18,257 nt of DNA from a virus. Taxonomy: Duplodnaviria; Heunggongvirae; Uroviricota; Caudoviricetes. Under the pieces are notes generated by a model, which saw only the letters and a list, made by a program, of their open reading frames with translations, was not told where the DNA came from and did not search any database. Shown piece by piece: positions 11,389-16,492 of this stretch (positions are counted from its first letter, which is position 1; each line of letters opens with the position of its first letter). The position numbers and the translations under genes are program-made. Location of the stretch: the IMG/VR virus record IMGVR_UViG_2600254997_000004; one strand, written 5' to 3'.

Positions 11389-11600
11389 CAGAACCTCGCC
11401 AGCCGGTACCCGGGATGCCCCCGTCGTCGTGTAATCAGAGCCGCAAGGCGGCGCTCCCACTCCTGCCGTCCCTGCCGGATCTCAGATAAGTTTTCCATTG
11501 TCATCTGCTGACCATTAAAGGTGACGGATTTTCCGTCCAGCACCGCCATTTCAGCTTCCGTATAACGCTGAATCATGGCTTCGATATCATTCTGGTTCAT
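11388..11600 (-). CDS. W: Head-tail joining protein (lambda gpW-like, 70 aa)
   Basis: Small protein ending ...ITRRRGHPGYRLARF, comparable to the gpW C-terminus; its ATG at 11600 overlaps the terminase stop (ATGA) with GGAGG 6 nt upstream. Confidence 0.75.
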   Translation of the reverse strand: MNQNDIEAMIQRYTEAEMAVLDGKSVTFNGQQMTMENLSEIRQGRQEWERRLAALITRRRGHPGYRLARF

Positions 11601-13699
11601 AACCATCCTCCGGAAGTCAGCCAGGGGTTAACATCGTCAGTTACTGTTTTCTTCCGTTTTTGTTTTTTAACAGGCGTGGATACCGGTTCCGGTGAGGGTG
11701 ACGGTTCGGTACTGTCCGGGACACACTCCAGCCAGGTTTCCCGGCTCGCCCACTCCGGTGCATCCGGCCAGCGGATCTTTTCGTATCCATGCAGAATGAC
11801 CAGAGCCTCGGCATACACCATCAGGTCAAAAGCTTCGTTGGCACCGCGACCCGGCTTACTCCATTTCCCGTCACTACTCCGCTCTTCATACGTCAGTTCG
11901 TCGTAAAACCAGCTCCCCAGCCAGTCAGGGAAATGCACATAGCCGGGACCTGGCGAGTCACGCCATAACGCGTTATTCACCCGGTCTTTCAGGGCATCCG
12001 TCTGAAGAAGCCAGAGCGGCACATCACCTGCGGCCTGCGCCCGTCGGCCCGTTCGTCCGGTGTTATCAGGGAATGTACGGGTGATCAGTTTTGCGCGCCG
12101 GATGCTGTCGCCCTTAAACAGGTAAATACGTTTACCAAGGCCATCACGACGGCAACGACGCCAGAATTTATAGGCATTATCAGTGACCCCGTCTTCACCG
12201 CCGGAGTCCACCGCCATTGCCATCAGTCGCATTTGTTGAGAAGGATCGGAGGCCAGCGGCCAGCTTTTATGAAAAACATCCGTCAGCAGGACATCCCAGT
12301 CTTCCGGATAGCTGGCCGGATCAATTCGCTGGCTCTCCCCGTCGCTGTCACCGCGCAATGACTGCGTGATGTTGTAACGATCAATAATCCAGCGTTCGCC
12401 ACGGCTGCCATAGCCCGTTACCTGAACCACAAAACGGCGATGACGTCCCGCCTGCACATCAACTGTCGCCACCAGGAAATTAACGCCATCCGGCACACTG
12501 CGGGAAGGAACTGGCTCTGCCCGCTGCTCAAGCAGTTCACTTTTTCGTTGCTCCATGCTGGCACGGGGAAGATAAGGTAATCCCCAGTCGGTATTGATAA
12601 CCGTCTTGAGTGTTTCTTCACTTCCGGTTGTCTCGTATTCCTGTTCTGCAGTAAGCAGTTTGTAAACGAGTTGCGAGAGTGTCTGGTAAGCAGCTGCCGG
12701 ACCCTCCATCCAGAATGACGCAATACGTGAGCGTCGGGGATCACCATAACGACTGCCATCCGCATTGATGGATTCACCATCCCGCAACCAGACCCCACGT
12801 CCGTTCAGCTCACGTTTTTGTTCAGGCATAATCCGTCCTGAACAGGAAGGACACTGAATATAAGCCGCCTCACTTGCCAGCACGGGATCGGCAATATCAC
12901 GGAAACCAGCAACCACATCGCCGCAGGGCTGAAAATACTCACCACAGTGTGGACAGGGCCAGTACCAGCGACGGCGATCGCCACGGTTATAGAGCGACAG
13001 TATCCCCGTGGTTGGTGGAGCCTCATGCGGTGAAGTCCGTCGCCATTTCACATCCTTCACATCCCTGCCGGGGGAACTCTCCACCAGCGTCATACCACTG
13101 GACATAAATGTGGTGGTACGTTTTGAGGCAAGAGAGAAGGCATCCCCCTCGCCATCAATATCTTCCGGAAAACGGTCATAATCCGTCAGCGCCACGCATT
13201 TATAATCTGATGAGGACATGATATTGACTGACGGCCAGCCGATTTTCAGGTAGTTGCCAGCAAGGAATGTTCTGTCATAAACGTTGTTGTCATTTTTGTT
13301 CGGACTCAGGCGACTGACCACTTCCGGGCTGACGCGAAACGTTCTGGCAAGTCGTTTTTTGGAGTGTTCGCGGGCTTTTTCCTCCGTCATCTGAATGATC
13401 AGCATATCAGCAGGATCGCAAATCACATTGTAAATCACCCAGCCGTCAATCAGGCCGATAGTCTTGCCAGTTCGTGCCGGGCCAACAAATATCACTGCGT
13501 CGTATTCACGCGAGGCCAGGCAGTTCATCGGCTCAATAACATACGGTGCCACCAGCGGATCCCACGGGACTGAATTCCCGGCCCCCATGGGCACCCGCAT
13601 ATACTGAGCAACGGCATCAGCAACCCGCATTCGTCTCGGTGCGCGAAGGATATAACCTGAATCGGTTCGTGCTGCCTTTGCGGTTTCCTGATTCAGCAT
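11597..13699 (-). CDS. Terminase large subunit (lambda gpA family, 700 aa)
   Basis: 700 aa with a Cys-rich CPHCGEYF...CPSCSG segment like lambda gpA (CPHCGEE...); start overlaps the Nu1 stop (TAATG) with AGGAGGAG upstream. Confidence 0.9.
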   Translation of the reverse strand: MLNQETAKAARTDSGYILRAPRRMRVADAVAQYMRVPMGAGNSVPWDPLVAPYVIEPMNCLASREYDAVIFVGPARTGKTIGLIDGWVIYNVICDPADMLIIQMTEEKAREHSKKRLARTFRVSPEVVSRLSPNKNDNNVYDRTFLAGNYLKIGWPSVNIMSSSDYKCVALTDYDRFPEDIDGEGDAFSLASKRTTTFMSSGMTLVESSPGRDVKDVKWRRTSPHEAPPTTGILSLYNRGDRRRWYWPCPHCGEYFQPCGDVVAGFRDIADPVLASEAAYIQCPSCSGRIMPEQKRELNGRGVWLRDGESINADGSRYGDPRRSRIASFWMEGPAAAYQTLSQLVYKLLTAEQEYETTGSEETLKTVINTDWGLPYLPRASMEQRKSELLEQRAEPVPSRSVPDGVNFLVATVDVQAGRHRRFVVQVTGYGSRGERWIIDRYNITQSLRGDSDGESQRIDPASYPEDWDVLLTDVFHKSWPLASDPSQQMRLMAMAVDSGGEDGVTDNAYKFWRRCRRDGLGKRIYLFKGDSIRRAKLITRTFPDNTGRTGRRAQAAGDVPLWLLQTDALKDRVNNALWRDSPGPGYVHFPDWLGSWFYDELTYEERSSDGKWSKPGRGANEAFDLMVYAEALVILHGYEKIRWPDAPEWASRETWLECVPDSTEPSPSPEPVSTPVKKQKRKKTVTDDVNPWLTSGGWL

Positions 13700-14193
13700 T
13701 ACTCCTCCTGCTGTAATTCCTCCTCATCATCCGCACCTGCTTCAGTCACCCGCAGGGCTATCTGATCGCGCAGATCATCAATAATGGACAGAACACGGCT
13801 CACAGCGGCAGGCTGCAGACCGCAGTCACGTTCCAGAATATCCGGTAATGTCTCCAGCACCTGCACGACCGCTTTTGCCCAGATGGCAAACTCCCGTCTG
13901 ACATCACTGGCCGGAATGAGTTGTGCCGTTTCCTGTTCGAACTTAAGACGCTCACGTTCAGACTGATACCAGGCTTTGCGCTCATGCGCGTCCATTTCGC
14001 CTTCTGCAACCGGCGGTGGCAATGCCAGAAATGCCGACACAATATCAACCACCCGATAAAGCTTGAGGTTGCTTTCATGCCCCCCTGCAACGGGTAGATT
14101 TTGCAGCCTTGCCGCAGCAGTCTGGCGATGTACACCTGACAGTGCCGCCAGTTGACTGATATTCAGCGTCAGATTTTTTAACTCTCGATCCAT
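13699..14193 (-). CDS. Terminase small subunit (lambda Nu1-like, 164 aa)
   Basis: N-terminal HTH-like segment NISQLAALSGVHRQTAAARL; about 175 bp downstream of the putative cosN; GGAG upstream of the ATG. Confidence 0.8.
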   Translation of the reverse strand: MDRELKNLTLNISQLAALSGVHRQTAAARLQNLPVAGGHESNLKLYRVVDIVSAFLALPPPVAEGEMDAHERKAWYQSERERLKFEQETAQLIPASDVRREFAIWAKAVVQVLETLPDILERDCGLQPAAVSRVLSIIDDLRDQIALRVTEAGADDEEELQQEE

Positions 14194-14379
14194 ACCCGCT
14201 CCAGAATGTTTTAAACATGCATCTTGCGAACAACTTTAGGCAAACGGTGTTAGTGATGAACAAAAAACAATCAAAATCGACACCGCAAAAATAAAACTAC
14301 TGCAATATCAATCAATTACAGCAGTGGTGATGACGAATGAAATTTCAAAAACTAGCCTTTTTCCGCGACGCTCCCGCCC
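14194..14379 (-). other. cos site: putative cosN (14368-14379, GGGCGGGAGCGT on the minus strand) plus the cosB-like region extending to the Nu1 start
   Basis: Minus-strand sequence ...GACGGGTCCT...CACG GGGCGGGAGCGT CGCGGAAAAAGG...TTCGTCATCACC... parallels the lambda right end and cos (ACGGGTCCT...TACG GGGCGGCGACCT CGCGGG...TTCGTCATAACT) as I remember it; spacing to Nu1 is similar; GTGATGA repeats at 14255 and 14325. Confidence 0.65.
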
Positions 14380-14550
14380 CGTGGCAGGCCACCCCACCAG
14401 GAGGACCCGTCAGCCTGACAGCCATGACGAACGTCTGATACAGCGCCCTGCATGAATGGCATCGGGATAATCCAGAAAGGAATAGCATCGTACCTACAAG
14501 AATCTGTGTGAGCGTCCTGTTTCTTCCACCCCCGCACAGGACTGGCGAGC

Positions 14551-14727
14551 ATGAGGGACAAACCCACGAATCATAAACGCGGTAAAAACCCGGTGTGCAT
14601 CGTTTTTGATTATTCCCGCACACTCACGCAGAAGGAATTCCCCGTCGGGCTACGATCATGGTTAATGCGGGAATACGGCGACGATACAGCGCATGATGTG
14701 TCAGGCTTGAATACCTTTATCCGTTAA
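14551..14727 (+). CDS. Hypothetical 58-aa basic protein, convergent with rha
   Basis: ATG-initiated ORF MRDKPTNHKRGKNPVCIVFDYSRTLTQKEFPVGLRSWLMREYGDDTAHDVSGLNTFIR; weak ribosome binding site; below the ORF-track length cutoff. Confidence 0.25.
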   Translation: MRDKPTNHKRGKNPVCIVFDYSRTLTQKEFPVGLRSWLMREYGDDTAHDVSGLNTFIR

Positions 14728-14808
14728 AAGGGATATCAGTTAAGTTATCCCGTGCAGGGTATAAGCCATTATCAAGCCCACCCGTAGATAGGCTTTGTAA
14801 TGACATCT

Positions 14809-15333
14809 TCAATTAATCAGCAGTTCAGGCTGTGTCACCTGCAAAATGTATTCATGCTCGACAGCCAGGACACGCTTCTCTTTCTTCCGTTCGTTCATTA
14901 ACCGACTGCCGATCGTACCTTTCAGCTTTGAGCGTGTTTCTTTGATGGCGTAGCGGTGCTGCATTTCTTCGCCAATTGCCATGCGGCGGCTCAGTTGCTC
15001 TGCCATCCAGTTGAATGCTGCGATATAGCTCTCCTTGATTGCCGCAGCAGCTTTCCCGGTGAACCCCATCACAACCATGATCCAGCCATCTTTCGTCAGG
15101 CTGTACATCGGGCGAACCTTGCCCTGCTCATCGATATAATCAGCCGACGCAAAATTGCGTTGGCTAAACTCACGCGAGCAATCAGCCTTAACCTGCTCGA
15201 TTTTCCTGAGAACATCACCGTGTCGCTTGCCGAAGTACTTGGCAATTTTTCTGGATGTGGTAACGACCTCTCCGTTTTTGGCTTGCACCATTTCTCGGAA
15301 GTCGAAGGCTGGAATAACTGAATGATTATTCAT
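14809..15333 (-). CDS. rha: Rha-family phage regulatory protein
   Basis: Start at ATG 15333 (MNNHSVIPAFDF...) with AAGG upstream; IAKYFGKRHGDVLRKIE resembles the Rha family signature (FGKRHD.VLRDI); the ORF-track N-terminal extension overlaps Rz and a terminator. Confidence 0.65.
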   Translation of the reverse strand: MNNHSVIPAFDFREMVQAKNGEVVTTSRKIAKYFGKRHGDVLRKIEQVKADCSREFSQRNFASADYIDEQGKVRPMYSLTKDGWIMVVMGFTGKAAAAIKESYIAAFNWMAEQLSRRMAIGEEMQHRYAIKETRSKLKGTIGSRLMNERKKEKRVLAVEHEYILQVTQPELLIN

Positions 15334-15476
15334 AGCGTCTTTACCTTTTAGAAAGTGAGCCTGTCTCACAGAAAAGCCGCCCGAGAGAGGTCGCCACCTA
15401 TAACGGCATTTCTCAGGCTCGCTTACTGAAAGGCTCTCGTTAATATGCGCGTGAGATGCGCGTTTACTGCGGACAT

Positions 15477-15499
15477 AAAAAAGCCCCGCATCGCGAGGC
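15477..15499 (-). terminator. Intrinsic terminator-like hairpin after Rz/Rz1
   Basis: Minus-strand RNA GCCUCGC-GAU-GCGGGGC (7-bp stem with one G-U pair) followed by 6 U, 32 nt after the Rz stop. Confidence 0.55.
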
Positions 15500-15530
15500 T
15501 CATTAAATTGACTTTGTGATTTGCAAAAAA

Positions 15531-15998
15531 TTATTTCAGGCATTGCGTCCTGATGTACTCCTGAAGCGTTCTCAGTGCTGTTTGGTCACGGATAATTCCG
15601 TCCCGGATACCGAGAACGTTTCGTCCAGCAACTGAAGAGAGTTCGACGGTGGCATCATTGCCCATGCCGGAGGAGCTGGAGGTTTTGGCTGAGGCTGGCA
15701 CAGGGCATTTTCCTTTGACGAGCACCCGACCACCATTATCAAGCTTACGCCGAAGAGCATCATTTTCAGCTTTCGCATTGGCTAACTCCTTCGTGTATTT
15801 AGCATCGAGTACATCAGCAGCACGCTGGCGTTGCTGCATGTCAGTAATGGTGGCGGTCGCCTGCTTCAGCTCACTGACTTTTTTATCACGCTGCTCTTTG
15901 TAGGCGATGGCGTTATCACGGTAATGATTAACAGCCCATGACAGGCAGAGGATGATGCAAATAACCAGAGCGGAGATAATCGCGGTTACCCTGCTCAT
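15531..15998 (-). CDS. Rz: Spanin, inner-membrane subunit (Rz-like)
   Basis: [34 protein letters not shown] closely matches the lambda Rz N-terminus as I recall it; ATG overlaps the endolysin stop (ATGA). Confidence 0.9.
15572..15778 (-). CDS. Rz1: Spanin, outer-membrane lipoprotein subunit (Rz1-like), embedded in Rz in the +1 frame
   Basis: [19 protein letters not shown] with lipobox Cys, then a Pro-rich mature region ([12 protein letters not shown]), like lambda Rz1 (MLKLKMML...VVGC...PPPPAW); lies entirely inside Rz. Confidence 0.85.
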
Positions 15999-16492
15999 TG
16001 CTGCCCCCACAAACAGACTTCACGCTCAATATCACGACGGGTCATCAGCCCTTTCCATTGCTTACCGCCAGCGTATGTCCAGCGACGTAGCTGGTCACAT
16101 GCGCCTTTGATATCACCCTGGTTTATTTTGCGAAGAAGCGTCGATGTTCTGAAATTACCAGCGCCCACGTTGTAAACGAACGAGTAAAGAGCGCCGCGCG
16201 TTGTTTCCGGTATATCGACTTTGATGTACGGGTTAATTTGTCTGGCGACCATGGCAAGGTCTTTATTCAGGAGGGCTTTGCATTCTGCTTCGGTATACGT
16301 TTTACCGGGAATGATGTCTTTTCCGGTGTGTCCGTGACATACAGTCCATACGCCAACGATATCTTCGTATGGTATGTAGCTGACACCTTCCTGGCCATCG
16401 TCACCACTCGGACCAGTGATGAGCACAGACGCTATGGCAACAGCCCCACCACCAATAGCAGCAGCAACAGCCTTGCGTAATGATGGCGACAT
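15995..16492 (-). CDS. R: SAR endolysin (phage 21 R-like lysozyme)
   Basis: N-terminal Gly/Ala-rich SAR segment ([20 protein letters not shown]) followed by a lysozyme core ([16 protein letters not shown]); very similar to R21 as I recall it. Confidence 0.9.

Follow-up and report, generated by a model that had tools for sequence, protein, structure and literature searches.

A phage rha gene stands behind a widespread, apparently structured RNA leader that also precedes other accessory genes of the lysis-packaging interval

Analysis of an 18,257 nt stretch of viral DNA (Caudoviricetes; IMG/VR record IMGVR_UViG_2600254997_000004), referred to here in its full length as the window, revealed that its rha gene belongs to a large set of interchangeable cargo genes, preceded in common by a conserved and apparently folded 5' leader that follows a terminator. 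In the window this leader is a non-coding segment of 143 nt and of the type found in phage phi80 (15334-15476, minus strand), which lies between the terminator and rha and ends exactly at the rha ATG. A preliminary description of this DNA had proposed the same interval for promoter mapping; what we found there instead was the conserved leader. On the basis of comparative sequence data, the leader is apparently a widespread and unannotated structured RNA, a cassette junction that keeps one long hairpin by compensatory changes.

The rha gene occupies 14809-15333 on the minus (late) strand, with its ATG at 15333 and its stop codon ending at 14809, and encodes 174 amino acids, so that the coordinates, strand and length in the preliminary description were correct. 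Its assignment of the product to the Rha family, for which it suggested a search of Pfam and TIGRFAM, was also borne out. The product matched Pfam PF09669 (Phage_pRha) with an E-value of 2.2e-28 and 99.1 bits against a cut-off of 29.9, covering 90 of the 91 profile positions, and NCBIfam TIGR02681 ("phage regulatory protein, Rha family") with an E-value of 3.8e-33 and 113.8 bits against a cut-off of 45.95; it also matched phrog_518 ("Rha-like transcriptional regulator", E 4e-78). With both curated cut-offs passed, far beyond chance, the 174-aa product belongs to the Rha family. A protein search returned Rha homologs in 243 clusters across Enterobacterales; PF09669 was present in 120 of the 120 clusters listed, and among those listed nearly all that had a name given by their source were called "Rha family transcriptional regulator". 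RefSeq uses this same name for a gene of identical size (525 nt) in a lambdoid prophage of the enteropathogenic E. coli (EPEC) strain E2348/69, which is 99.3% identical to the window over 14194-15560. The rha gene of the window is a routinely annotated gene and already known, and there is nothing new in the gene itself.

The genes surrounding rha lie on a single strand in the order holin, lysozyme, Rz/Rz1, terminator, rha, cos and terminase. This order is shared with phi80 and P22, in which rha likewise follows the lysis genes in the late operon. The lysis cassette comprises a P21-type holin (16752-16492, minus strand), a lysozyme (16492-15995, minus), the i-spanin Rz (15531-15998, minus; Pfam Phage_lysis, E 2.9e-28; phrog_13, Rz-like spanin, E 1e-71; "lysis protein" in the RefSeq annotation of E2348/69) and, embedded in Rz, the o-spanin Rz1 (15572-15778, minus). 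Rz is the final gene of the cassette and lies directly upstream of the rha unit. The terminator that the preliminary description placed after Rz was recovered in our terminator scan as an intrinsic-terminator-like hairpin, GAGCCTCGCGATGCGGGGCTT, with nine pairs, six of them GC, followed by TTTTTT (15501-15481, minus); phi80 has the identical sequence, annotated as a "putative rightward transcription terminator".

Downstream of rha, the predicted, lambda-like cosN with its 12-nt cohesive end GGGCGGGAGCGT (14368-14379, minus) marks the left end of the packaged chromosome. Position 14379 is 430 nt past the end of rha, and the gene does therefore lie between the spanin genes and cos, as had been described. 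We placed cosN by the starts of the phage cdtI and phage Tritos records, base 1 of which corresponds to window position 14379 read on the minus strand; over bases 1-33 (GGGCGGGAGCGTCGCGGAAAAAGG...) cdtI does not differ from the window, read from 14379 towards lower positions, and the DUF1441 gene of cdtI begins at base 185. These two phages served as markers because the end of the mEp460 record, which we tried and rejected, is away from cos, 25 nt before the terS ATG. The flanks of cosN here (CACG/GGGCGG.../CGCGG, with slashes at the breaks) resemble those of lambda cosN. Between cosN and the small terminase gene, 50-60 nt past cosN, lies a perfect IHF consensus, TATCAATCAATTA (14306-14318, plus strand), the sole zero-mismatch match in the window, which sits where lambda cosB has its I1 site. 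The small terminase subunit gene is of the DUF1441 type (13699-14193, minus; Pfam DUF1441, E 5.6e-40; phrog_141, terminase small subunit) and is followed by a large terminase gene of the gpA type (11597-13699, minus; Pfam GpA_ATPase and GpA_nuclease).

This region also holds a plus-strand ORF of 58 aa (14551-14727), convergent with rha, within the stretch 14513-14808 that accompanies rha in phage 2B8; neither Pfam nor PHROG gave a match to it, and no similarity to phi80 gp52 was found. A Cys/Arg-rich ORF of 92 aa on the minus strand (14345-14623) overlaps the cos region; the records of mEp460 and its relatives list it as a hypothetical protein. It showed a marginal PHROG match (E 0.0012 across 15 residues) and is unlikely to be a gene.

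The founding member of the Rha family, phi80 rha (NC_021190 43739-44293), stands in the same Rz-terminator-leader-rha order on the late strand, and the two proteins share 73% amino acid identity over their full length. Judged from the sequences, the window gene is the positional ortholog of phi80 rha. The similarity is very unevenly distributed. From about 15560 to 15292, a block consisting of the 3'-terminal 30 nt of Rz, the terminator, the leader and the first 14 rha codons is 97-100% identical to phi80, whereas outside it Rz is about 40-70% and the remainder of rha about 45-90% identical, with the central Rha domain diverged to about 55-65% nucleotide identity. The leader itself is about 100% identical to those of phi80 and 2B8, while identity in the flanking coding DNA falls to 55-75%. 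Codons 1-14 of rha (MNNHSVIPAFDFREMV; 15292-15333, minus) fall inside the near-identical block and divergence begins immediately after them, which would fit either a recombination junction or a regulatory constraint inside the coding start, for example the IHF-like site at 15315-15327 discussed below. The two loci differ in the interval from rha to cos, which in phi80 holds further genes together with another copy of the leader and in the window is the short stretch given above.

Similarly, P22 rha (ORF201) and ES18 gene 79 are Rha-domain genes that directly follow the spanins and a terminator and precede the packaging genes, as here, behind a leader which has the same architecture as that of the window but is of another sequence type. 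Given that phi80 (Rz-terminator-rha), P22 (gene 15/Rz1-rha) and ES18 all have the gene in this place, the slot is canonical for the family; the preliminary description was right about the position of rha, but to call it inserted there makes it more unusual than it is.

The start codon merits some attention, since the ATG at 15333 is the inner start of a longer open reading frame (14809-15543). The 244-aa reading from the ATG at 15543, which overlaps the Rz stop codon, traverses the leader and the terminator. We rejected it as a chance open frame or artefact, both because it runs across a terminator and because a 1-nt difference in the T-run in phi80 and 2B8 puts the ATG at 15543 out of frame. 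There are two in-frame start candidates for rha, GTG 15369 and ATG 15333. In other types of leader the frame that begins at the GTG does not stay open, since it meets a stop (in E212-type leaders) or is interrupted by 1-nt indels, and ATG 15333 is thus the conserved start. The database entries of phi80 rha (L001 1858-2412 in our locus numbering; 184 aa) and P22 rha (L137 1026-1631; 201 aa) each begin with a GTG inside the conserved leader, in phi80 12 codons upstream of the conserved ATG with which the window gene starts; the conserved ATG gives 172 and 178 aa, respectively. Because they lie inside the leader, while the ATG is conserved across all cargo types, the annotated GTG starts of both genes are probably too far upstream.

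A confident AlphaFold2 model of Rha built from 36 homologs (pLDDT 85.3) shows a b-b-a-a-a-b-b-a domain (residues 17-88) and a 47-residue helix (94-140) that packs on a second helix (144-167). The protein is thus predicted to consist of an N-terminal Rha domain (about residues 14-116) that is winged-helix-like, followed by a long helical hairpin (residues 94-167). A Foldseek search with the model gave weak structural matches, none at E <= 0.001. The C-terminal tail gave no match to the Pfam model ORF11CD3 (PF10549) at E <= 0.01, in contrast to Rha of the P22 and Stx types and some KilA-N proteins of the same slot, in which this tail is present; when window-type tails were aligned to ORF11CD3-type tails with hhalign, the register was as expected and the score (E 0.015, probability 3%) was not significant. 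The ORF11CD3-type tail, of about 55 aa (...ASxxGRxLxxWGxxxKPxL...Q..IPGLP), is common to Rha- and KilA-N-domain cargo in loci L006, L008, L011, L013, L129 and L137, which points to swapping of N-terminal domains on a common C-terminal module.

While the predicted fold would suit a DNA-binding protein, Rha has also been named an antirepressor, in which case it would bind and inactivate a CI-type repressor, that of its own phage or of a co-resident prophage, and not DNA. Several Rha-domain PHROG families are labelled anti-repressor or Ant (phrog_15204, 373, 63), RefSeq names P22 rha "anti-repressor", "the Rha antirepressor of phi80" is the wording of PMC4936722, and a protein with a KilAC/ANT domain is found among the other cargo of the slot. 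However, the labels are annotation transfers and not experiments, and the N-terminal domain in the model resembles a DNA-binding winged helix. Moreover, a gene of the late operon that lies behind a terminator is made after the lytic decision, and so Rha could not trigger induction of its own phage. We therefore consider an antirepressor function unlikely, and the reading of Rha as a DNA-binding regulator preferable.

The leader extends well beyond the phages considered so far. We detected homologs with 80-100% identity in 254 phage records (Escherichia, Salmonella, Klebsiella, Enterobacter and Hafnia). Of 5426 complete E. coli genomes, 953 (about 18%) contain the leader, and none of these has anything annotated over it; being so frequent and never annotated, it is a candidate for a new RNA family. 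A search of window positions 14100-16100 against Rfam 15 gave a best E-value of 0.26 and no family matching the leader, and the P22, phi80 and ES18 loci gave nothing at E <= 0.1. The leader is non-coding, as indicated by 1-nt indels between its variants. For the same reason we rejected the small ORF annotated within it as gene 63 of phage c341, since such indels disrupt any frame.

In every case examined the 3' end of the leader coincided with the ATG of the next gene, while the identity of that gene varied. It encodes Rha in phi80, BHUENT6, the Stx2a phages, yong1 and RCIP0114, a KilA-N protein in S135, E212, SE10 and pPE4, and a T5orf172/MUG113 (GIY-YIG-like) protein in HK106 and c341. In a census of 132 leader loci, identified by scanning viral contigs for the motif, the cargo was a short Rha at 80 loci and a long Rha at seven, with a truncated Rha ORF at one more; 22 loci carried a KilA-N-like protein, 14 a T5orf172 protein, four an unassigned protein of 198 aa, three a KilAC/ANT protein and one an HNH protein.

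Minimum free energy folding and RNAalifold agree on two elements in the leader. At its 5' end there is a small hairpin, GCGC-AUCUCAC-GCGC (15447-15461, minus strand), paired in 99% across 94 copies, for which covariation is uninformative because the sequence is almost invariant. We considered whether this hairpin might be a nut boxB, or the leader an RNA like put of HK022, and set both aside, given that the loop does not resemble that of boxB and that the terminator precedes the element instead of following it. The second element is a long irregular hairpin (15343-15434, minus) made up of the helices GCCUUU/AAAGGU, AG/CU, AAG/CUU, GAGCCUG/CAGGCUC, AGAAA/UUUCU and GCCGUU/GGCGGC and an apical AGGU-GGCG-ACCU. 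The only Shine-Dalgarno-like motif of the leader, the purine run AAAAGG (15344-15349, minus), ends 10 nt before the ATG and pairs in the predicted fold with GCCUUU (15434-15429) in the basal helix; it would serve as the ribosome-binding site.

The window leader alone, with an MFE z-score of only -1.5, and the phi80-type leaders alone, which are too conserved for a pairing test and yielded one covarying pair, say little about this fold. More distant copies were found with a covariance model trained on phi80-type leaders only. The window leader scored 157 bits against this model, P22-type leaders, including those of P22 and ES18, 35-67 bits (E 1e-6 to 1e-13), and leaders of a third type with a short apex 54-82 bits, while matches on the opposite strand scored at most 28 bits. 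In the resulting set of 94 copies from three sequence types, 96.0% of the cells held a standard pair, compared with 82.2% after shuffling and 36-49% when the 3' partner was slid by 1-3 columns; 24 of the 31 pairs were changed on both sides, compared with 13.8 in shuffled and 5-9 in slid alignments. Cells changed on both sides numbered 399 against 143 after shuffling, although the independent events are fewer than these cell counts suggest, given that the copies were aligned to the model itself and the signal lies largely between three clades. None of 500 shuffles reached the observed values, several positions use three to five pair types, and in the basal helix all three of three pairs have changed on both sides and are kept.

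The P22-type leaders provide a separate view of the fold, as an alignment of these alone (MAFFT, RNAalifold) gave the same architecture with compensatory changes of its own, for example GCCUUUG/CAAAGGU versus GCCGUUG/CAACGGU. In addition, G-U pairs are frequent and are compatible with the sense strand only. The independent P22-type fold, the sense-only G-U pairs and the low scores of the opposite strand count against the fold being an artefact. In P22-type leaders, on the other hand, there is a second AAGG outside the helix, and sequestration of the Shine-Dalgarno sequence may not be general.

These data also bear on whether the leader is conserved only as a patch of homology for recombination between modules, with a hairpin that has no function. 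The sharp boundaries of identity, about 100% inside and 55-75% outside, are typical of mosaic junctions, and the same leader precedes unrelated genes. A recombination linker requires identity and not pairing, however, and the three sequence types differ at most stem positions yet keep the helices, with compensatory changes and sense-specific G-U pairs. That recombination alone accounts for the conservation is thus quite unlikely; the two roles may coexist, and we retain the structured leader as the better reading.

Evidence that a related leader is transcribed comes from P22, for which the accessible part of a recent report (Noncoding RNA 2026;12:21, PMC13397905) describes P22F, an 89-nt sense-strand RNA found in infected cells only and checked by RT-PCR, with its 3' terminus 6 nt upstream of the rha ATG. 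There P22F is treated as a free-standing sRNA with an identical sequence kept in other phage genomes, and not as the cis-leader of variable genes (PMC13397905). Its place on the P22 sequence is the upper portion of the P22-type hairpin, to which 15343-15420 corresponds in the window. The detection of P22F indicates that the P22-type leader is transcribed and that at least part of it accumulates as a stable fragment; it is reported for P22 only and as an sRNA, whereas the leader of the window is of the phi80 type. The authors of that report draw an analogy to IsrK of Salmonella Gifsy-1, a prophage RNA directly upstream of a regulatory gene for which control of translation was proposed (PMC13397905). 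We found no similarity between IsrK and the window leader in sequence or Rfam model, and the genomic context is another, so that IsrK is an analogy only.

While the window has a single leader, the covariance model detected second copies in other loci, a few kb from the first and of the third, short-apex sequence type. The second copy of phi80 (L001 797-925, minus strand) lies directly upstream of an N15-gp59-like gene that precedes cosQ, and other short-apex copies are at L171 7796-7925, L016 8499-8625, L030 3245-3373, L158 1100-1243 and L178 1039-1196. All but one of the second copies examined end at the ATG of a further ORF, the products including HNH_3-like endonuclease-like proteins and small proteins; the exception, in L116, has no open frame after it. 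In each of two IMG/VR contigs (L164 and L179), a pair of P22-type leader motifs is separated by about 2 kb, suggestive of cassettes arranged in tandem, each with a leader of its own. A terminator-like hairpin with a T-run was present within 70 nt upstream of the leader in 82 of 94 copies by a heuristic test. Given this and the repeated copies, the repeated unit looks like terminator, GCGC hairpin, long hairpin with ribosome-binding site, and ATG, a reusable front end for accessory genes in the lysis-packaging interval.

With regard to expression, the preliminary description expected rha to be expressed late or from a promoter of its own, and counted Rha-family proteins among frequent moron cargo. 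Our data support the first of these alternatives. A scan of the minus strand from Rz to the ATG (15333-15530), which covered the sigma-70 consensus only, gave no sigma-70-like promoter, inspection by eye revealed no -35/-10 pattern conserved across the leader types, the 5' part of the leader included, and the terminator scan found none just below 14809, directly after rha. The lack of a sigma-70-like promoter makes late read-through likelier than an autonomous moron; Q and pR' lie beyond the end of the window, judging by the annotation of E2348/69. Lambda bor and the classical morons share with rha the Rz-cos interval and the character of accessory, non-essential cargo. Classical morons, however, come with a promoter and a terminator of their own and are active in the lysogen, whereas rha has neither signal by the consensus scan and lies on the late strand behind a terminator, and is thus not a self-contained moron in this sense. 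On the other side, Henthorn and Friedman reportedly found in 1995 a low early expression of Rha in hosts lacking IHF, which would imply some transcription independent of Q, and the slot is a known cargo site with highly variable cargo. That rha is an autonomous moron, transcribed in the lysogen from its own promoter and of benefit to the host (through superinfection exclusion or defence, for example), is nevertheless very unlikely in view of the missing signals and of the harm to phage growth that PMC4936722 reports for Rha over-expression.

An IHF-consensus-like site, AATCATTCAGTTA, with one mismatch to WATCAANNNNTTR, is present in rha codons 3-7 (15315-15327, minus strand), although the 14 such matches in the window against 13.2 expected put it at chance level. 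Henthorn and Friedman are said to have described in 1995 two possible starts for rha, with IHF sites flanking the start. PMC4936722 and PMC4541283 describe rha of phi80 and P22 as an IHF-regulated gene of the late operon whose product prevents the phage from growing when the host lacks IHF, a phenotype known only for these two phages; both papers trace the work on Rha to Mozola & Friedman 1985 and Henthorn & Friedman 1995. The phi80 rha record likewise carries the note "DNA synthesis inhibition in IHF- hosts".

The explanation that best accommodates these observations, and which we consider likely, is that the window carries an intact phi80 rha ortholog in the standard accessory slot, with antiterminated late transcription and leader-limited translation, whose product is a dimeric DNA-binding regulator. 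By analogy to lambda, ordinary RNA polymerase would stop at 15501-15481, and only terminator-resistant transcription from pR', by polymerase modified with Q, would reach rha; transcribed by the late polymerase alone, the gene would presumably be silent in the lysogen. Translation would in turn be limited by the leader hairpin, which would pair the Shine-Dalgarno-like run until it is opened or cut. RNase III would be suited to such a long imperfect duplex, although the ends of P22F reported in PMC13397905 are unlike a simple RNase III product. Once made, Rha would act as a dimeric winged-helix DNA-binding regulator, and its over- or mis-expression would arrest phage development, as the literature on phi80 and P22 has it.

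It is tempting to extend this reading to the leader as a whole. We tentatively propose that it represents an undescribed family of cis-acting structured RNAs, a portable terminator-hairpin-ribosome-binding-site adaptor of the late operons of lambdoid and P22-like phages, which would silence potentially toxic cargo (Rha, KilA-N, T5orf172/GIY-YIG-like, ANT and HNH proteins) at the level of translation until the hairpin is melted or cut in response to a late signal. The leader might at the same time serve as a junction for cassette exchange, and P22F might be its processing product. If true, a translational gate of this kind would provide a concrete handle on the reported deregulation of rha in IHF-deficient hosts, and it would explain how genes for harmful DNA-binding proteins and nucleases can be accommodated in phage late operons.
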